DNA from: an uncultured Gemella sp.
GTDB taxonomy: Bacteria > Bacillota > Bacilli > Staphylococcales > Gemellaceae
Assembly: GCA_963525505.1 (NCBI GenBank)
Contig: CAURKK010000003.1
Location: 350 to 64,349 of the forward strand
Length of the DNA: 64,000 nucleotides
Direction of reading: 5' to 3'
Positions 2,825-19,674 of this stretch are shown here, in pieces. Each line of letters begins with the position of its first letter. Within the stretch, counting starts at the first letter, position 1. Position numbers and translations under genes: made by a program. Under the pieces are notes generated by a model. It was not told the DNA's origin. It worked only from the letters and a program-made list of their open reading frames with translations, and made no database searches.

Positions 2825-3003
2825 AAAAATCTCCTATAAAATTCTCTTTATTTTCTTAAACTTCAACTTTTAAACTATATAAAATTCAACTCGATAAAAG
2901 TTCATATACCATGAACTATTATAACATAATTTTCCTTATGATAATAATATTTAGCGAGATTTTAAACAAAAAAATATACGGCTGCATACACAACCGTACT
3001 TTA

Positions 3004-3077
3004 CTCCACAGGTAGGACTCGAACCTACGACCCTCTGATTAACAGTCAGATGCTACTACCAACTGAGCTACTGTGGA
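3004..3077 (-). tRNA. tRNA-Asn(GTT)
   Basis: Reverse complement TCCACAGTAGCTCAG...CTGACTGTTAATCAG...GTTCGAGTCCTACCTGTGGAG; CCA not encoded. Confidence 0.95.
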
Positions 3078-3098
3078 AAAATATCTAAAATAAAAAAA

Positions 3099-3172
3099 TG
3101 GAGCGGGTGATGAGAATCGAACTCACAACATCAGTTTGGAAGACTGAGGTTTTACCACTAAACTACACCCGC
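3099..3172 (-). tRNA. tRNA-Gly(TCC)
   Basis: Reverse complement GCGGGTGTAGTTTAGTGGTAAAACCTCAGTCTTCCAAACTGA...GTTCGATTCTCATCACCCGCTCCA. Confidence 0.95.
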
Positions 3173-4298: not shown

Positions 4299-4363
4299 AA
4301 AACAAAAAGCCTTAAACGATGATACTTTAAGGCTTCTCTAACTTTATTATTTAGTTTCTCTGT
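4299..4363. repeat. att direct repeat, left copy (duplicated rpmG 3' end + terminator)
   Basis: AAAACAAAAAGCCTTAAACG(A)TGATACTTTAAGGCTTCTCTAACTTTATTATTTAGTTTCTCTGT, 64/65 identical to 14958-15022. Confidence 0.93.
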
Positions 4364-4466
4364 TTGATTTGATAATTTCTATAAATTCCCAGTACTTTCC
4401 AACCATTGATATATCAACATTTTTATATTTAGTAATTTTTCAATAATGTTGGTAAATATTTCAATT

Positions 4467-4487
4467 TGTGGGTCAAGTGTGGGTCAA
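4467..4487. repeat. Putative integrase arm-type binding sites (left)
   Basis: TGTGGGTCAAG tandem 11-mer, same motif as 14929-14956 at the other end of the element. Confidence 0.75.
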
Positions 4488-4585
4488 CTCAAGATTATTT
4501 TTATTATTTATCTAGCACATATCAAAGGAATTAAGTAGACTTAAAATTTATAGTATAGGTATGTGCATTTTTTGCACTAACCACT

Positions 4586-4616
4586 TTAAAGGACGGTTTT
4601 CTAACCGTCTTTTTAA
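4586..4616. terminator. Terminator-like hairpin downstream of PBECR4-like gene
   Basis: AAAGGACGGTT-ttct-AACCGTCTTT inverted repeat. Confidence 0.6.
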
Positions 4617-4643
4617 GATGAAAAAAAGACTAAGAATAACAAC

Positions 4644-5165
4644 TTAGTCTAACCATTTTATATTTTTAATTGTCGTTCTACGAGTTTTATTATATTTTCT
4701 AGAATCATCTTCGTGTAAAGTAACTAGTTTATAAGAATCATTAATCTTTCTTAACCCCAATACTATCGAGGTTCTTCCAGTCGTTTCATATACTACTAGA
4801 TTTAACTTCATACCATTTCTAGGTATATCTTTATCTACGACACATATATTTATTTCTTTACCGTAAAATACTTTCTCAATAAAATTATAATTTCTGAATC
4901 TAGAAAACATATCGGAAAAATCTTGATGATTAGATAAATCAGAAATTAATAATTCATTATTTTTTATCATTTCTATACTTTTATTAGCGTAAATATTCTT
5001 AGGTAAAACATAGTGAAGTCCTAATAGATGATGTAAATCAGTTTCACTAAATATAACCACTACATCCTTCATCTTTTTATAATTCAACTCTAATAAACAT
5101 TTTTTATTACAGAATTTTTCTTGATAATCTTCTAATGTGCTTTGTAATGTTGCATCACTATCCAT
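4644..5165 (-). CDS. PBECR4-like (phage Barnase/EndoU/ColicinE5-D/RelE fold) putative ribonuclease
   Basis: Probable start MDSDATLQ at 5165 behind AGGAGG SD (ORF-track extension to 5255 runs into the RNA); FSETDLHHLLGLHY resembles the F-x3-[ND]-x2-HLxGL motif of PBECR4 proteins. Confidence 0.6.
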   Translation of the reverse strand: MDSDATLQSTLEDYQEKFCNKKCLLELNYKKMKDVVVIFSETDLHHLLGLHYVLPKNIYANKSIEMIKNNELLISDLSNHQDFSDMFSRFRNYNFIEKVFYGKEINICVVDKDIPRNGMKLNLVVYETTGRTSIVLGLRKINDSYKLVTLHEDDSRKYNKTRRTTIKNIKWLD

Positions 5166-5184
5166 ACAACCTCCTTTATAAAGA

Positions 5185-5440
5185 TAAAAAAAATAAGCAC
5201 GGAACGGAAGTAGTCTCCGTACGGGACAATCGATTAGTTGTTGATAGTGGAACAACTAACTCCCTACTGTTGTGCTTCTTAGGCTTGTCGCAAGGGAACA
5301 GTTCTTAAGCTCTGCCAAGCGGTGTAACGTGCTTCTATTACACCTCTATATCACTATAGATTAATTCGTTTAAACGGCTTGAGACGATTTCTTAAAATTG
5401 CTAATTTAATGGAATACCCATCAATAACCTCCTGTCTCTA
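5185..5440 (-). ncRNA. Candidate structured leader/antitoxin RNA upstream of PBECR4-like gene
   Basis: Locally GC-richer; at least 6 hairpins; loop AAGCACG (5328-5334) complementary to 3' CGTGCTT (5195-5201); ends in a U tract. Confidence 0.6.
5401..5421 (-). CDS. 6-codon upstream mini-ORF (MGIPLN) inside the leader RNA
   Basis: AGGAGG (5428-5433) + 6 nt + ATG GGT ATT CCA TTA AAT TAG. Confidence 0.4.
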   Translation of the reverse strand: MGIPLN

Positions 5441-5445
5441 TATTT

Positions 5446-5474
5446 ATTTTATATCAACATTATACTTTTGTCAA
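5446..5474 (-). promoter_or_regulatory. sigma-A promoter of leader RNA / PBECR4-like gene
   Basis: TTGACA-N17-TAAAAT on minus strand. Confidence 0.75.
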
Positions 5475-5716
5475 CTTTTCTTATTACGTCTTAATATTTT
5501 TGTGCCCTTTTGTACTGTACTCTCTCAGCATTTTACGTTCTAAGCGTTCTGATTTTACTTTCCCTTATAGTTATATCCCTTGACCTCTTATAAGGTAAAT
5601 AAATGCTTGTATTTCCCATTATTTTACATCACAAACGATATACTAGTAAATATTACTGCATTGTTGTGGTATATGATTTCTTATAAATAATGTAATAACT
5701 TCGACTAGAAGTAACA

Positions 5717-5829
5717 TTGATTATTTTAAAATATTATATTATAATATAAGTAACAAAAGAGATATCGGACGTCTTCCCCCCAGTTTTTTTGGAGGATGGA
5801 TCAATATCTCTTTTTATTTTTTTGTTACT
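5717..5829 (+). ncRNA. Orphan sRNA cassette 1 (promoter + hairpin + U tract)
   Basis: TTGATT-N17-TATAAT (5717-5745), stem AAAAGAGATAT/ATATCTCTTTT enclosing CGTCTTCC/GGAGGATG, then T tract; no ORF follows. Confidence 0.5.
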
Positions 5830-5862
5830 ATGTCTTCTATAGTGTTATTTTATTTAAAAGTA

Positions 5863-5930
5863 TGATATAATAGTATCAAATAGAAATAGTAACCGCATTC
5901 CCACTGGAGAGCGGGTACTATTCTTTTTTT
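5863..5930 (+). ncRNA. Orphan sRNA cassette 2 (extended -10 + hairpin + U tract)
   Basis: TGATATAAT (5863-5871), stem AATAGTA-A-CCGC/GCGG-G-TACTATT with inner TTCC/GGAG, then T7. Confidence 0.5.
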
Positions 5931-5960
5931 ATGCTATATATCTTTAAATACCACTAATTT

Positions 5961-6734
5961 CTATATAGGTTTTCAATGTAGTATTTTGTAGTAATTTTAT
6001 ATATAGGTTTCCGCACTTTCATTTTTCAACATTTTCACTTATACAGAATTTTATTCCAACATTTTCCAACAATTTAACTTTCACGCGAAAAAATATGTAC
6101 AGTGACGGCGTGAAGTCCAAACAATATAGTGGAGAGGTACTCTCCCCCTTTAAAAATTCTTTTTGATCTATATAGGATTTTATATAAGGTTTTTGAAAAC
6201 TCCTTTAAGACTGCCGAAACTGCCGATTTTAAAGATATATAGATTTTATGCCTACATTTGCCAACATATAGGTTTTATTTGACAAGTTTTGACAAGTTTT
6301 TTTATCTATATATGCTTTTATACCAACATTTACCAACATTTTATACAACATGAATTACACTCATATTTCTTAAATTTTATTTATATATAGGTTATTTTTC
6401 CGATATTTTATGTAAAAAAACGTTATTTTTACCTCTAAAAATGGTAGTTTTTGTTAGTAAAAAGTAGTTTTTTCATACTGCTGTTTAAAAGCTGTTTAAC
6501 GTGTTTCAACTCAATTTAGTGTAATTATATCTATTTCCACACAGAAGCGGTCTAATAACTGCATATTACCGCTCATAAGGGAAAAGAAATAGTCACTGTT
6601 CATTATTATTGTTTTTTCTCTATATACATTTCAAACCTTAGCATTTCTTAGCATTCTACCTTAGTAATTTATACCTTTTACCGCTTCTAAAAATAGTGTA
6701 TTTTATGAATTTTTTCACGCTTCGTTCACGCTTC
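5961..6734. repeat. Array of heterogeneous 9-11-bp tandem dimers interspersed with TATATAGGTTTT-like motifs; possible packaging (cos-like) region
   Basis: Dimers such as TGTAGTA, TTCCAACA, ACTGCCGA, TTTGACAAGT, TACCAACATT, GCTGTTTAA, CTTAGCATT, TTCACGCTTC; about 8-9 copies or variants of TATATAGGTTTT. Confidence 0.7.
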
Positions 6735-6750
6735 AATATAATTTCATCTA

Positions 6751-6780
6751 AAAAAAGACACCTAATAAATAGATGTCTTA
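6751..6780 (-). terminator. Terminator downstream of RinA-like gene
   Basis: AAGACATCTATTTATTAGGTGTCTTTTTT on minus strand. Confidence 0.7.
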
Positions 6781-6915
6781 ATTGTGTATACCATACATTT
6801 TTTCTTTTTTTTGGTCGCTTGCTTTTATTTAGTTCTTTTCAAATTTATTGCAGTAAACTGAAAAGATATATTGTTTATACCATACATTTTTACTTTTTTT
6901 ATCGGTGTTTTAGAT

Positions 6916-7620
6916 TTAAATATCTAGTTCTTCTAAGTACTCATTATGTAACTTCATACAGTAACGTTCACTTTTTAAACCTACCATTCTTGCTACCTTT
7001 TTCCATTCTTCAACCATTAAATACCGCCACCAGTATATATGTCTAACTCTTAAATCAGATATATTTCTAATAACACTTGATAGATACTCTTTTTCTTTCA
7101 GTGTTATTATTTTTAATTCTTCAATATATTTTTCTGTATCTTCTATTTCAGATAATAAACTGACTGCTTTAAAATCATATTCCTGTTTACTGTATTTGAT
7201 TTTTTCTTTTGAATAGTCAGTAGCTTGTATATTTGATAGATATTTTTGTTTTTCGTTCAGTTCGTCTAATGTATTATATAATTGGTATAATTGTTCTCTT
7301 AAATCTCTATACCTATTTAATTTTTGCTTTTTATCATTGTTCAATCTTTGTTCAACTCTTGGCGGGGTCTTAACTTTTATATATCCTTTATTAGATAGTA
7401 AACTGAACAACTTCACTTTATGTTCATCAATAATCTTGTTTTCTTCATCAGTTGCCTTACGTGAAAAATTAAAGTATACAGCTATCAATAATTCACGTTC
7501 TAAGCTGTCTATTTTGTTTAGGTAGGTTTCTATAGCTACCGCTTCTTTAGAGGTCGTATCGTCCATAGAACGCTCTATTATAAGGTCTAGTTTAGATAGT
7601 TCTTCTCTTGATAACTGCAT
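6916..7620 (-). CDS. RinA/ArpU (DUF1492-like) phage-type transcriptional regulator with N-terminal extension
   Basis: C-terminus ISDLRVRHIYWWRYLMVEEWKKVARMVGLKSERYCMKLH resembles the sigma4-like HTH of RinA/DUF1492 proteins. Confidence 0.65.
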   Translation of the reverse strand: MQLSREELSKLDLIIERSMDDTTSKEAVAIETYLNKIDSLERELLIAVYFNFSRKATDEENKIIDEHKVKLFSLLSNKGYIKVKTPPRVEQRLNNDKKQKLNRYRDLREQLYQLYNTLDELNEKQKYLSNIQATDYSKEKIKYSKQEYDFKAVSLLSEIEDTEKYIEELKIITLKEKEYLSSVIRNISDLRVRHIYWWRYLMVEEWKKVARMVGLKSERYCMKLHNEYLEELDI

Positions 7621-7649: not shown

Positions 7650-8120
7650 TTACCATAAATCACCTACAATGTATCCATTATCTTTTTTTAGATATCCACA
7701 ATATAAAGCTTGTAACACTAAATACTCTAGTATCTTGTATTTCTCTAGTAAATACCATGAAATTTCATTATCTTCCATTCTATATTCTTCAGTATCTTTT
7801 TTCTTCTTAAGTGGCTTCATAATATCTATTTCTTCATCAAAACAGATATTCAATAATTCAATAGTTATATTATGTTTATTGTTTCTTGGTACTAGTCTTA
7901 TATCGCTACCATAATTTAAGCCTTTGTAAATTTTATCTTCTTTGCTGTATACAAGAAGTCCAACTTTTATTAGTCTACCTTGAATATATTCTAAAGGTTG
8001 CATATTCTGTTTTAACCAATTTCTAACCTCTAATATATCTTTACATGGGTACATAACTCTAAATTTTTGAAAATCTTTATCTGTTATCTTCTTGAATTTT
8101 CTTCTTGATCTCTTTTTCAT
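7650..8120 (-). CDS. Hypothetical satellite protein
   Basis: Probable start MKKRSRR at 8120 behind AGGAGG; in operon with neighbours. Confidence 0.6.
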   Translation of the reverse strand: MKKRSRRKFKKITDKDFQKFRVMYPCKDILEVRNWLKQNMQPLEYIQGRLIKVGLLVYSKEDKIYKGLNYGSDIRLVPRNNKHNITIELLNICFDEEIDIMKPLKKKKDTEEYRMEDNEISWYLLEKYKILEYLVLQALYCGYLKKDNGYIVGDLW

Positions 8121-8189
8121 TACCACACCTCCTACTTTTAGAAAATCAATTCTTAAATTTAAAAAATAGAAATACCATAAATTTAAAAA

Positions 8190-8735
8190 GCGACAAGTTT
8201 TTATTTTTTTCTTTTTTTCGCTTTCCCTATCCGTGGGGTAAGGACGGTACAAGGGGGCTAGCTTTAAAGCCCCTTGTCCGTATTACCCACATAGGGGGTT
8301 ATTGCCACCTACTAGACTATATACATCGTAGATAGTATATAGTGGGGTGTCTGACAAAAATACTTGTCGTTTCATGTCGTTTAGCAATTCTTAAATGCTA
8401 TTAATCGTTGATTTAATAACTTTTATATACGACAAGTATTTTAATTTGTCGTATTTGTCGTAAAAAAACGACAAGTATATATTAAAAAACACTTTTTGTC
8501 GGGTTGTCGGGTGCCGTCATTTGTCGTTTTTGTCGTTTTTGTCATGAATAAAATAAATATATTTATTTTTTTAAACATGATTTTCACCAGTAAAAATCAA
8601 ATATAAATATTTTATTTTTTATATTTTATGGTTATATGTCGTTTATTTTATCTTAGTATGTATTTTAAAACTAATAAATAAACTTTTTCATTAATACGAC
8701 AACCATTTATAATTTTAAAATGTCGGTGTCGTTTT
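8190..8735. other. Putative replication origin (iterons)
   Basis: About 15 copies of TGTCG/CGACA in both orientations, AT-rich core, GC-rich hairpin ACAAGGGGGCT..AGCCCCTTGT (8249-8278), directly downstream of the AAA Rep gene. Confidence 0.7.
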
Positions 8736-11088: not shown

Positions 11089-11301
11089 TTAAAAAAATAA
11101 ACTATCAATTGTTTCATTGGGAAAGTATTCCTTGAAAAAGTTCAATAGTATTACTTTTTCTTTGTCAGTAAATGCCACTAACATTCTTTCTTTACGTCCA
11201 TATACAACATGGTGGATATTAAGTAATTCACTCATTTCTTTTTGTGTTTTACCTAATGCATATCTATAAGAACGTACTTTACTTATTTTGATAGGTTGCA
11301 T
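11089..11301 (-). CDS. Cro-like XRE HTH regulator
   Basis: 70 aa, RYALGKTQKEMSELLNI HTH, divergent from repressor. Confidence 0.8.
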   Translation of the reverse strand: MQPIKISKVRSYRYALGKTQKEMSELLNIHHVVYGRKERMLVAFTDKEKVILLNFFKEYFPNETIDSLFF

Positions 11302-11326
11302 TTTAAAAACTCCTTTCTAATATTTA

Positions 11327-11400
11327 AGTATTTTTCTGTACTTACAATATTAGTTTAGCATTACACTTCTTACTAGTCAAGTACTTTTTTGTACTTTTCT
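11327..11400. promoter_or_regulatory. Putative operators of the repressor/Cro switch
   Basis: AGTAYTTTTYTGTACT-like motif at ~11327 and ~11380, with a related copy at ~11068. Confidence 0.45.
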
Positions 11401-11462
11401 ATTTATTTTTATACTTAATTAGTGTATAATGAGGATATAACTTAATTAAAGAGGAATTATAT

Positions 11463-12080
11463 ATGAAAATAACTGTAAATAAGAAAGCTGTTGGTTCGAG
11501 GATAAAACAAATTAGAATGAATAAAGGTTACACTTTAGAGGCTTTTGGAAAATTGTTTAATGCTAGTAAAGGTAATGTTCAACAATGGGAAAATGGTGTT
11601 TCTTTACCTAATAAAGAAAGATTAGCCAGTATTTCAAAAATAGCTGATATGACTATAAATGAATTATTATATGGTTCTATTGATGAATTTTTAGATAATA
11701 ATTTAGTTTCTATACTAGAATATCAAACTGGAAACAAAGTATCATCTAACGAAGAGTATTCAATCGCTAGACTTCAGTTTAAAAAATGGTTAGAAGATAG
11801 AAATATAACATTAGACAATATCCATTATATTTATGATTATATTGACCAAAATAACGCTACATGGAACCCTTGGAATATTGATATTGAGTATTTAAAAACT
11901 ATGGAAAATATAAGGGTTAATATGCAAAAAGAAACGTATAAACTTGTTGAATTAATCGAAATGTTAACAGAAAAAGATAGAAAACAACTTGCCAAAAAAA
12001 TTATATCAAAACTTAAGACTTATCAATTATCAGATAGTGATAAGAAATATATTCAAAGTTTAGAAAATAACAACAATTAA
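11463..12080 (+). CDS. XRE-family repressor (Stl/CI-like)
   Basis: VGSRIKQIRMNKGYTLEAFG...VQQWENGVSLP N-terminal HTH; no S24 peptidase domain evident. Confidence 0.85.
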   Translation: MKITVNKKAVGSRIKQIRMNKGYTLEAFGKLFNASKGNVQQWENGVSLPNKERLASISKIADMTINELLYGSIDEFLDNNLVSILEYQTGNKVSSNEEYSIARLQFKKWLEDRNITLDNIHYIYDYIDQNNATWNPWNIDIEYLKTMENIRVNMQKETYKLVELIEMLTEKDRKQLAKKIISKLKTYQLSDSDKKYIQSLENNNN

Positions 12081-12468: not shown

Positions 12469-13440
12469 GTGAAACCTTTTAAAACTTTAGATCAACAGCT
12501 TAAAATTTTAGAGGATAGAAACCTAAAATTTAAAGATAAAGAAGCAGCTAAACAGTATTTACTGGAATATAATTACTACAATGTTGTAAATGCTTATAGT
12601 AAATTTTTTATAAATTCTGATACCAGTAAATATTATGATGATGTGTATTTTGAAGATATTCTTGAAATACACCACTTTGATAAAGTAATAAAAACTGTTA
12701 TCTTTGAAGGAATAATTGAAGCTGAAAGACACTTTAAGTCGATTTTAGCTTATTGTTACTGTAAACATTTTAAAAATGATTTATATTCATATTTAGATAT
12801 AAAAACATACGGTAGTACGGATATTATAAAAGTAAGTAGACAAATTTCTAACTTTGCCAATACTTTAAATTATTACAAAGAGAAGAAAAAAAATAATAAT
12901 TCAATTAAACATTATTATAAGGTTCATTCAGTTGTACCGTTTTGGGTTTTGGTTGATTATCTTACACTAGGTGAAGTAACATACTTTTATAATTTATTGC
13001 CTGATAAAATAAAAAATGATGTTGCAAAAGAACTGGCGAAGTTTGTTAAAGATAATTTAAGTACCACTTCAATTAAAGATATACACTTTAACGTTATACA
13101 AAAAGGATTAGAAAATCTTACTGAATTAAGGAATATAACAGCACATAATAATAAAATGTTAGAAACTACTCTAAAGAATGATTTACCTTTTTATGCTGAT
13201 ATACATACACCGTTAAATATCCTTAATAGCGATAATAGACAAAGTATTTATAATTCTATACTTTATCTTAAATTTTTTATCAATTATAACCAATATGCAA
13301 AAATTAATAACACTATAAGAAAAAGAATGAATAACCTTAGAGGTAAAATTAAAAATCAAAGTTATACCGATAAATTATTTTCATCTATAGGATTACCTAA
13401 TGAACTTCAGATTATGCAATTAAAAACTAAAAATAATTAA
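12469..13440 (+). CDS. Abi family protein (AbiD/AbiF, Abi_2; HEPN RNase)
   Basis: MKPFKTLDQQLKILEDRNL N-terminus, NYYNVVNAY, VPFWVLVDYLTLG, HEPN RNITAH (Rx4H). Confidence 0.9.
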   Translation: MKPFKTLDQQLKILEDRNLKFKDKEAAKQYLLEYNYYNVVNAYSKFFINSDTSKYYDDVYFEDILEIHHFDKVIKTVIFEGIIEAERHFKSILAYCYCKHFKNDLYSYLDIKTYGSTDIIKVSRQISNFANTLNYYKEKKKNNNSIKHYYKVHSVVPFWVLVDYLTLGEVTYFYNLLPDKIKNDVAKELAKFVKDNLSTTSIKDIHFNVIQKGLENLTELRNITAHNNKMLETTLKNDLPFYADIHTPLNILNSDNRQSIYNSILYLKFFINYNQYAKINNTIRKRMNNLRGKIKNQSYTDKLFSSIGLPNELQIMQLKTKNN

Positions 13441-14957: not shown

Positions 14958-15022
14958 AAAACAAAAAGCCTTAAACGTTGATACTTTAAGGCTTCTCTAA
15001 CTTTATTATTTAGTTTCTCTGT
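14958..15022. repeat. att direct repeat, right copy (rpmG 3' end + terminator)
   Basis: Matches 4299-4363; includes rpmG stop codon and AAGCCTTAAA/TTTAAGGCTT terminator. Confidence 0.93.
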
Positions 15023-19409: not shown

Positions 19410-19674
19410 ATATGCAACCGAGACTTGAATAGATTAAAAAACCGTTAGTCTAATCGCCAACTCAACCTCAACAAAAACTCACACCCACAATAGACTTACT
19501 TAATGCTGCTTCCTTCCGGACCTGACATGGTTCATAAGTATTGCGTCGTAAGGTGCCTCAGTCTCAACATTACGTGTTAAACTCGACATTCCCTATTCTA
19601 CCCGCATCTCGGTATTCGGTCTTGCTAAAGCGGATTGCAAGTACAGGGCACCGCTAACTCCCCACCTAGCATTT
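19410..19674 (-). ncRNA. ffs: Signal recognition particle RNA, large (Bacillus-type, with Alu domain)
   Basis: Reverse complement has GCTAGGTGGGGAGTTAGCGGTGCCCTGTACTTGCAATCCGC (Alu) and CATGTCAGGTCCGGAAGGAAGCAGCAT (domain IV); ends approximate. Confidence 0.92.

Follow-up and report, generated by a model that had tools for sequence, protein, structure and literature searches.

A PBECR4-family gene behind a pseudoknotted Bacilli-1 RNA in a Gemella satellite: a candidate type-III-like toxin-antitoxin module

What does a structured, non-coding RNA of some 250 nucleotides (nt) do for the small gene that follows it? The question is raised by a 64,000-nt stretch of DNA from an uncultured Gemella sp. 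(assembly GCA_963525505.1, contig CAURKK010000003.1, positions 350 to 64,349 of the forward strand), referred to here as the window, in which a gene for a 173-residue protein of the Pfam family PBECR4 lies on the minus strand behind such an RNA. We propose that the two form a type-III-like toxin-antitoxin or abortive-infection module, in which a putative BECR-type nuclease is matched with a single-copy pseudoknotted RNA and carried as cargo of a Gemella satellite. Judged from sequence and its comparison, this reading has a probability of roughly one half.

A conserved, covarying RNA upstream of the gene

The locus displays a compact layout. Promoter, structured RNA, U tract, Shine-Dalgarno sequence and open reading frame (ORF) follow one another on one strand within 830 nt (5474-4644, minus; Table 1), all of them where an earlier note, made from the letters of the sequence, had placed them. 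The promoter ranks best of the 14 promoter-like sites in 4300-6300, a count that is itself not above that of shuffled sequence (mean 12.3). In an alignment of homologous loci inspected by eye, its -35 and -10 boxes keep a constant position relative to the RNA, and transcription likely starts near 5439. GC content reaches 0.43-0.475 across 5200-5379 and falls to about 0.25 on either side. On the same strand, the RNA region contains no ORF of 25 or more amino acids (aa) except a TTG-extended frame of the nuclease gene. CGUGCUU and the U tract end about 20 nt ahead of the nuclease ORF with its Shine-Dalgarno sequence. A run of eight T follows CGUGCUU, the closing helix of the 3' domain abuts this tract when folded, and most transcripts likely end here.

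Comparison with homologues argues for a real and constrained RNA structure. The covariance model was built from 20 distinct sequences, and the later alignment contains 29 distinct homologous RNAs. The conserved core spans about 170 nt and comprises helices P1 and P2, an invariant GCUUGGCAGAGCUUAAGAACUG stretch, a UUCCCU/AGGGAG helix that crosses P3, an internal AAGCAC motif, helices P5 and P6, a GUGCUU tail and the U tract. Compensatory changes occur in 25 of the 42 modelled pairs, and 98.9% of cells are paired, compared with 33-43% in slid controls. For four measures (percentage paired, pairs changed on both sides, cells changed on both sides and the covariation score), none of 500 column shuffles reaches the observed value; the fifth, the count of further pair types, is reached by 484 of 500. 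Folding of the 254-nt RNA alone gives a z-score of -2.58, with 2 of 200 shuffles folding as well, and the real support is comparative.

Every stem drawn in the earlier note is present (GAGAC/GTCTC, TCTATA/TATAGA, GGTGTAA/TTACACC, GCTTG/CAAGC, TTAGTTGTT/AACAACTAA and ACGGA/TCCGT), and the upstream RNA is conserved and covarying among homologues, the outcome on which that note had made its proposal depend. The second cross-pairing it suggested, TCCCT/AGGGA, lies in the crossing helix and shares its compensatory changes. Covariation supports P1, P2, the crossing helix, P5 and P6. P3 is paired in 99.5% of cells, with four of its seven pairs constant and three varying on one side only; P3 and the AAGCAC/GUGCUU pairing hardly vary, and comparison neither backs nor counters either of them. 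The duplication of AGAAGCAC that had been noticed also holds (5336-5329 and 5279-5272). Tandem Repeats Finder, run over 5100-5600 with a minimum score of 30, reports no tandem repeat, and only the hexamer AAGCAC occurs twice. In the P2 loop this hexamer is invariant in 27 of the 29 distinct RNAs. Invariant unpaired sequence in the RNA amounts to about 20 nt and includes GGCAGAGCUUAAGAACUG.

The RNA is partly known to Rfam. A full-length match to Bacilli-1 RNA (RF02931) covers P1, P2 and the invariant GCUUGGCAGAGCUUAAGAACUG stretch, so the first 65 nt of the core belong to an RNA already described. The Rfam model ends after these 65 nt and marks everything beyond P2 as unpaired. The conserved RNA, in contrast, runs for about 105 nt further and adds the pseudoknot, helices P5 and P6 and a tail that reaches back to pair with the P2 loop; this part, beyond the known segment at 5361-5297, is new. 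Rfam lists Bacilli-1 under the type 'Gene; sRNA' (small RNA), and the searchable literature yielded no function for it. The motif reportedly stems from the 2017 Weinberg survey, whose main text does not contain the word 'Bacilli'. A scan of 150 further species genomes of Bacilli gave no RF02931 match; this RNA is rare and carried on mobile elements.

No other Rfam family rises above chance level in 4400-5800, and a tRNA-like element, a T-box, a retron non-coding RNA and a CRISPR-type RNA were dropped as candidates on this ground. The 18 ORFs of the window that were compared with Pfam include no match to a reverse transcriptase or Cas family.

A long-range pairing joins the two ends of the core. 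The P2 loop AAGCACG is complementary to the 3' CGTGCTT, as the earlier note had seen. In the window sequence alone this complementarity is not significant, since 357 of 1000 shuffled loops equal it when G-U pairs are allowed. Support comes from relatives in which the letters have changed yet the pairing is kept. In one locus (L185), a loop AAGCGC and a tail GCGCUU compensate for each other, and the internal motif remains AAGCAC, mismatched to the tail. Because compensation occurs in the loop only, the P2 loop appears to be the partner of the tail rather than the internal AAGCAC; the loop partner is backed by this one compensatory change, and the internal partner is invariant. In distant relatives, the sequence that best complements the P2 loop by Watson-Crick pairs is again found beside the last hairpin, in changed letters: AGCGUG/CACGCU (L028), GAGUGA/UCACUC (two staphylococcal phages) and AGGG/CCCU (Listeria phage A500).

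The internal motif offers the tail a second pairing. When the 3' domain is folded alone (-25.5 kcal/mol, z -2.9), the internal AAGCAC pairs with GUGCUU and closes a three-way junction directly against the U tract. Two mutually exclusive partners for GUGCUU, one of which completes a terminator-like helix, have the anatomy of a switch, and the RNA may alternate between them.

The 5' hairpin that precedes the core is variable. A hairpin of different sequence is visible by eye in other members of the family. At 5431-5403 (minus), the window copy carries an insertion that is missing from two Gemella relatives; it contains AGGAGG, a 6-nt spacer and a six-codon mini-ORF (MGIPLN, then a stop).

Table 1. 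Features of the PBECR4/Bacilli-1 locus and of the element that carries it (window coordinates).
Feature	Position	Strand	Detail
Sigma-70-type promoter TTGACA-17-TAAAAT	5446..5474	-	11/12 matches
Whole non-coding RNA, ~250 nt, from inferred start to end of U tract	5186..5439	-	
Variable 5' hairpin GAGAC...GTCTC (5438-5434 / 5385-5381)	5381..5438	-	longer than in two Gemella relatives
Rfam Bacilli-1 RNA (RF02931) match, model 1-65, full length	5297..5361	-	76.9 bits, gathering 55.6, E 7.6e-17
Helix P1, TCTATA/TATAGA, loop GTGA	5345..5360	-	5/6 pairs compensatory
Helix P2, GGTGTAA/TTACACC, loop AAGCACG (5334-5328)	5321..5344	-	7/7 pairs compensatory
Helix P3, GCTTGGC/GC..CAAGC (GCTTG 5320-5316, CAAGC 5287-5283)	5283..5320	-	encloses invariant single-stranded stretch
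Pseudoknot helix, TTCCCT (5298-5293) with AGGGAG (5265-5260)	5260..5298	-	crosses P3; 4/6 pairs compensatory, 100% paired
Second, internal AAGCAC motif, alternative partner for 3' GUGCUU	5272..5277	-	invariant in 28/28 rows with letters
Helix P5, TTAGTTGTT/AACAACTAA	5234..5259	-	4/5 counted pairs compensatory (larger alignment)
Helix P6, GTACGGA/TCCGTTC (including ACGGA/TCCGT)	5202..5222	-	last hairpin before tail; 4/5 pairs compensatory
3' tail CGTGCTT (5201-5195), then A and eight T	5186..5201	-	
Shine-Dalgarno sequence AAAGGAGG	5177-5170	-	ahead of the 173-aa ORF
PBECR4-family gene, 173 aa	4644..5165	-	Pfam PF18813
Terminator-like hairpin	4627..4650	-	overlaps stop codon of nuclease gene
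44-bp exact direct repeat, left	4320-4363		bounds 10.7-kb element
44-bp exact direct repeat, right	14979-15022		bounds 10.7-kb element

The PBECR4 protein and its linkage to upstream RNAs

The earlier note's description of the protein as PBECR4-like is borne out by Pfam. The 173-aa protein matches PBECR4 (PF18813) with 45.9 bits against a cut-off of 27 (E 1.1e-11), with residues 7-165 aligned to profile positions 2-165 of 188, and a whole-genome scan with PF18813 returns it at 45.4 bits. With E-values up to 1, the Pfam scan finds no family besides PBECR4 and a weak poxvirus F15 match. In PHROG the protein belongs to group 3446, of unknown function. Residues invariant in its subfamily include H46, G49, H51, K112, D113, N117, T149 and Y158.

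The structural evidence is fainter. An AlphaFold2 model built from 18 homologues has a pLDDT of 93.8 and a pTM of 0.88. Foldseek finds no match for this model in the PDB at E<=0.001, and searches of all PDB sequences with two profiles give no toxin match. A structural scan with VIA-align, which covers the families of its own list, places BECR toxins in the top rows, weakly: colicin D tRNase domain comes first (Z 3.7, 79 aligned, rmsd 3.1), followed by a CDI toxin (Z 3.3) and by RelE, BrnT and YafQ (Z 2.8). The BECR fold that the earlier note had assumed gains weak support from this ranking. PBECR4 membership is assigned from the amino-acid sequence, and the BECR fold is putative. A homodimer prediction scored 0.00 and gives no verdict either way.

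The RNA and the gene travel together. A pattern drawn from the invariant stretch found 44 viral contigs, and the covariance model recognised 13 true members among 80 fetched metagenome loci and 2 more in species genomes; the other 67 of the 80 were dropped as chance matches of too loose a pattern. The 59 loci found through the RNA alone were not deduplicated and contain 28 distinct cores. Directly downstream and on the same strand, 45 of the 59 have a full-length PBECR4 gene, 5 a truncated or split one and 7 none, and 2 run into the contig end. In the 45 loci, the full homologues begin 110-155 nt after the GCTTGG motif. The linkage is tight and directional: 50 of the 57 assessable loci retain PBECR4, whole or broken, at fixed orientation and spacing. 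Two Gemella assemblies carry copies that are 91-94% identical.

Exceptions to the pairing are informative in themselves. Five loci (L004, L013, L089, L090 and L110) combine an intact RNA with a decayed protein gene, and L017 and L018 lose the nuclease gene a few codons in. Two viral contigs, L035 (1378-2270) and L036, present a GH25/LysM endolysin gene, the RNA and then a SocA/Panacea-domain gene (E 1.7e-20) that overlaps a 140-aa ORF, an arrangement that looks like swapped toxin-antitoxin cargo. The reverse linkage is limited. Among 29 PF18813 loci from 401 Bacilli genomes, 3 have a Bacilli-1-type RNA, and these 3 represent the small subfamily of about 170 aa, for which 202 clusters were counted at E<=0.001 in a set of 1.84 billion representatives.

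The position within mobile elements is also consistent. In the window, the module sits 280 nt inside the left 44-bp repeat, at the left end of a 10.7-kb satellite. In prophages of Streptococcus agalactiae, dysgalactiae, parauberis and suis, it follows the lysis genes at the cargo end; in the phiGBSVK-D record, it stands directly before paratox at the prophage end, between endolysin and paratox. In Streptococcus satellites, the module is the last gene at the far end.

Other stand-alone PBECR4 genes display upstream RNAs as well, of different kinds. The loci viewed comprise 18 short-frame loci from Bacilli genomes and 7 from a phylum sample, with the window's own locus, a near-identical copy (L167, close to L166) and a gene with an internal stop (L184) left out. 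By eye, these genes have 150-500 nt of ORF-free upstream DNA with a promoter, a GC-richer stretch and a hairpin with a U run. The layout of promoter, RNA, U tract and nuclease gene, which the earlier note had described for a single locus, is thus repeated within the PBECR4 family, and several instances include direct repeats. Such repeats, of 51-65 nt, are present in all five upstream regions tested (L166, L170, L172, L173 and L177). They form tandems with a spacing of 53-54 nt in L166 and L170 and lie 120-132 nt from one another in L173 and L177. In all five, the repeats lie just ahead of the PBECR4 gene or run into its called start, and they match no Rfam family at gathering score. A search of viral contigs with the L170 protein as the sole query yielded no relative.

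Recognised RNA families occupy the same position elsewhere. The drum RNA (RF02958, 52-97 bits) immediately precedes the PBECR4 gene, on the same strand, in four of the seven phylum-sample loci (L191, L192, L194 and L196). An independent scan for drum found it in 1 of 151 genomes, that of L194, beside its PBECR4 gene, which is too few for an independent association. Drum and skipping-rope are orphan structured RNAs with terminators, unrelated to Bacilli-1 in sequence and structure, and the PBECR4 proteins beside them are of other subfamilies and share 14-24% identity with the window protein. According to the main text of the 2017 survey, both RNAs associate with a nearby protein (PMC5737381). 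In L176, a skipping-rope RNA (RF02924, 46.3 bits; 2039-2120, plus) starts 5 nt past the stop of the PBECR4 ORF.

Listeria phages provide a related RNA. Their PBECR4 homologues follow the endolysin gene and are preceded by rli62; in phage A500, rli62 (RF01486, 142.5 bits) lies upstream of gp26, the 'Lmo2277 protein', and the staphylococcal phage phiRS7 has a weak rli62-like match in the same place (33.7 bits, threshold 83). This RNA resembles that of the Gemella locus in its position, flanked by the endolysin gene and a PBECR4 homologue that shares about 32% identity with the window protein, and in the loop-to-tail complement (AGGG/CCCU), which is kept. The Gemella/Streptococcus RNA model matches rli62 weakly (29.8 bits, E 1.8e-6). 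Unlike the window RNA, rli62 lacks the invariant GCUUGGCAGAGC and AAGCAC motifs and is followed by a separate canonical terminator, and in 4400-5800 no rli62 match appears at E up to 10 (threshold 83 bits). In two reports, rli62 is found among the sRNA candidates of the A118 prophage region in deep sequencing of Listeria sRNAs (PMC3105390) and among sRNAs that were tested or measured (PMC6786865). On the opposite strand of the A500 locus (L199, 2334-2417, minus), an rli34 RNA (75.7 bits) fills the gap just after gp26.

Expression data give a hint that the Streptococcus RNA is abundant. Between 87 and 97% of the words sampled from the Streptococcus copy are present in 14 RNA-seq runs. In one run, unitigs of the RNA core reach a depth of about 11,100-11,900, the contig over the ORF and the RNA 3' domain 705, and the upstream contig 185; as evidence of a terminator between RNA and gene, this fall in depth is no more than suggestive. 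Three runs examined as raw reads contained no reads of the Streptococcus locus and hence were no test.

Competing accounts of what the RNA does

Current evidence leads us to favour a module of toxin and RNA antidote. A constitutive sigma-70 promoter would transcribe the pseudoknotted RNA of about 250 nt, and most transcripts would end at the CGUGCUU-U tract, so that the RNA accumulates. A minority would read through and allow translation of the 173-aa PBECR4 nuclease. The RNA would restrain the nuclease in cis, by limiting read-through, and in trans, by binding the protein, probably by its invariant unpaired stretch and the two AAGCAC motifs. Cleavage might take place at AGAAGCAC. Shutoff of host transcription by a phage, or destruction of the RNA, would free the nuclease, and the freed enzyme would cut cellular and phage RNA, whereby infection is aborted or loss of the element punished.

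The layout, the cargo position and the decay of protein genes beside intact RNAs suggest cognate RNA-protein pairs. Above all, this is suggested by the occurrence of different PBECR4 subfamilies with different, sometimes repeat-built RNAs.

Known type III systems resemble this arrangement in part. ToxIN, CptIN and TenpIN likewise combine one promoter, an RNA gene, a transcription stop, which at the Gemella locus is a probable one, and a small endoribonuclease-type gene, and are borne on mobile elements. The defining placement of the RNA gene, directly upstream on the same strand under one promoter, is found in the window and in the 50 of 59 RNA loci that keep PBECR4. A 2026 paper describes a pseudoknotted RNA as central to type III antitoxins and lists only the families ToxIN, CptIN and TenpIN, all of one ToxN fold (PMC13682666). 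Pfam assigns the window protein to PBECR4, and its sequence shows no relation to these toxins. Membership of the three families was rejected, as the locus has neither a repeat array nor a sequence match to the toxin families (Pfam with E up to 1, PDB profiles).

The closest worked example is AbiF with its RNA RCd22 from the phi027 prophage of Clostridioides difficile. As reported for this system (PMC12373285), a toxic RNase gene lies there behind a structured non-coding RNA that is not ToxI-like, under the same SigA promoter. A Rho-independent terminator halts most transcripts, the RNA has two copies of a short motif, and it acts in cis and also binds the toxin in trans; abi_2/abiF genes are also noted downstream of prophage lysis modules (same source). 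The components differ, since the AbiF toxin is an Abi_2/HEPN protein with an abiF RNA (RF03085) and the window pair consists of PBECR4 and Bacilli-1. Membership of the abiF system was rejected: the protein has no Abi_2 match, and an abiF motif was found neither anywhere in the window at gathering score nor, with E-values up to 10, in 4400-5800. The searchable literature yielded no description of PBECR4 paired with an upstream RNA.

Several findings weigh against the toxin-antitoxin reading. The antitoxins ToxI, CptI and TenpI consist of 2 to 5.5 arrayed repeats, which the toxin cuts, whereas the window RNA is single-copy and free of tandem repeats. The protein matches no PADLOC or NCBIfam model, and the likeness of its predicted fold to BECR toxins appears weak even at the best Z-score. 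A simple terminator scan calls no canonical terminator at the site of CGTGCTT and the U tract. Support from RNA-seq is weak, consisting of coarse contig depths from a single run. The RNA precedes the Panacea-domain gene and the 140-aa ORF rather than PBECR4 in L035 and L036, and no PBECR4 follows it in L025, L040 and L073. Rfam, moreover, types the related rli62 as cis-regulatory. Toxicity, RNA-protein binding, inhibition, the trigger and the defence phenotype are all inferred.

Many of these points serve the main rival, in which the RNA is a cis-acting leader only, riboswitch-like or an attenuator responsive to a protein or other factor, that sets read-through into the downstream cargo and does not bind the nuclease. 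We consider this account unlikely as a full explanation, and the strongest of those that compete. The RNA occupies the 5' untranslated region, and about 20 nt separate its U tract from the Shine-Dalgarno sequence. Its two crossing helices and long invariant unpaired stretches amount to riboswitch-grade complexity, and GUGCUU has two invariant possible partners, one closing a helix against the U tract. Because of the exchange of cargo in L035 and L036 and the loci that lack PBECR4, the RNA can evidently be retained in front of other cargo, which is how a general leader would behave, and the Rfam typing of rli62 agrees. Against a leader acting in cis only stands the association of PBECR4 subfamilies with unrelated RNAs, several of them built of direct repeats, a pattern easier to reconcile with cognate partners than with sensors of a single ligand. 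The RNA core also seems far more abundant than the ORF in the one RNA-seq run, a weak argument given that terminated leaders accumulate too. The leader and toxin-antitoxin readings are not exclusive, as RCd22 illustrates by doing both (PMC12373285).

A third account makes the RNA a working partner of the enzyme, be it a scaffold, guide or decoy that confers target specificity, or a sensor of phage nucleic acid or protein that activates the nuclease. The strict co-inheritance of RNA and protein speaks for it, and some 20 nt of invariant unpaired sequence with two identical hexamers could serve such a role. There is also a precedent in the proposal, cited in PMC12373285, that RNA-bound nucleases of the AbiF type gave rise to the RNA-guided Cas13. 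We nonetheless regard it as improbable, given that broken nuclease genes beside intact RNAs, together with loci that have the RNA only, suggest that the RNA is of value without the enzyme, as an antidote would be, and that the invariant stretches stay constant between hosts, unlike usual guide sequences. Least credible is an independent trans-acting phage or satellite sRNA that base-pairs with host or phage mRNAs beside a merely neighbouring nuclease gene: the Rfam listing as an sRNA gene, the RNA's own promoter and U tract and the RNA-only loci agree with it, but it leaves unexplained both the fixed orientation and spacing of PBECR4 and the presence of at least three unrelated RNA classes in the same position before PBECR4 genes.

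If the toxin-antitoxin reading holds for the window, it may extend to the family. Stand-alone PBECR4 nucleases, each preceded by a structured RNA of its own, could constitute a large and so far unrecognised class of RNA-protein toxin-antitoxin or anti-phage systems whose toxin is of BECR type. In the Bacilli-1 branch, a single pseudoknotted RNA would have taken the place of the repeat array and would be at once antidote and termination switch, sensing free nuclease or a phage cue. The partners in this class would include Bacilli-1 for Gemella and Streptococcus, RNAs of the rli62 type for phages of Listeria and Staphylococcus, drum for other Bacillota and, elsewhere, RNAs built of repeats. This broader proposal is tentative, and we hold it with less assurance than the reading of the single locus.

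The satellite and the meaning of the module

The earlier note had placed the module in a satellite, and the surroundings agree. The 44-bp direct repeats, with about 20 further near-identical bases to the left of the repeat, enclose the 10.7-kb element and are most likely its att sites. Between them lie genes for an integrase, AbiD, a helix-turn-helix (HTH) repressor, an HTH_17 protein and a primase-like AAA_25 protein, a gene content that is that of a satellite. The AbiD/Abi_2 gene (12469-13440, plus; PADLOC AbiD, E 2.8e-43), located between repressor and integrase, is a second candidate defence gene at the other end of the satellite. Upstream of the module, 5480-6915 forms 1.4 kb without an ORF of more than 40 aa and contains several short direct repeats, among them TTCCAACATTTTC-like units and 45-nt copies at a distance of 267 nt. 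Situated downstream of the primase-like gene and of two further ORFs without assignment (7650-8252 and 6916-7620), this stretch may be the replication origin of the satellite. Outside the element, the window contains a bacterial large signal recognition particle RNA (145.9 bits; 19410-19674, minus) and genes for tRNA-Asn and tRNA-Gly (3003-3172, minus), all of them ordinary chromosomal genes.

The implications depend on the role of the RNA. If it neutralises or gates the nuclease, a function would be assigned to the Rfam orphans Bacilli-1, rli62 and drum, and perhaps to skipping-rope. RNA-antitoxin systems would then gain a toxin fold beyond ToxN, and a repeat array would not be required. A pair of helices that cross, some 20 unpaired nucleotides that never vary and a possible switch make the RNA an attractive structural target. 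Should the reading be true, it would also explain a recurrent prophage and satellite cargo of Streptococcus, Staphylococcus, Listeria and Gemella, and would bear on competition among prophages and on host range in phage therapy.

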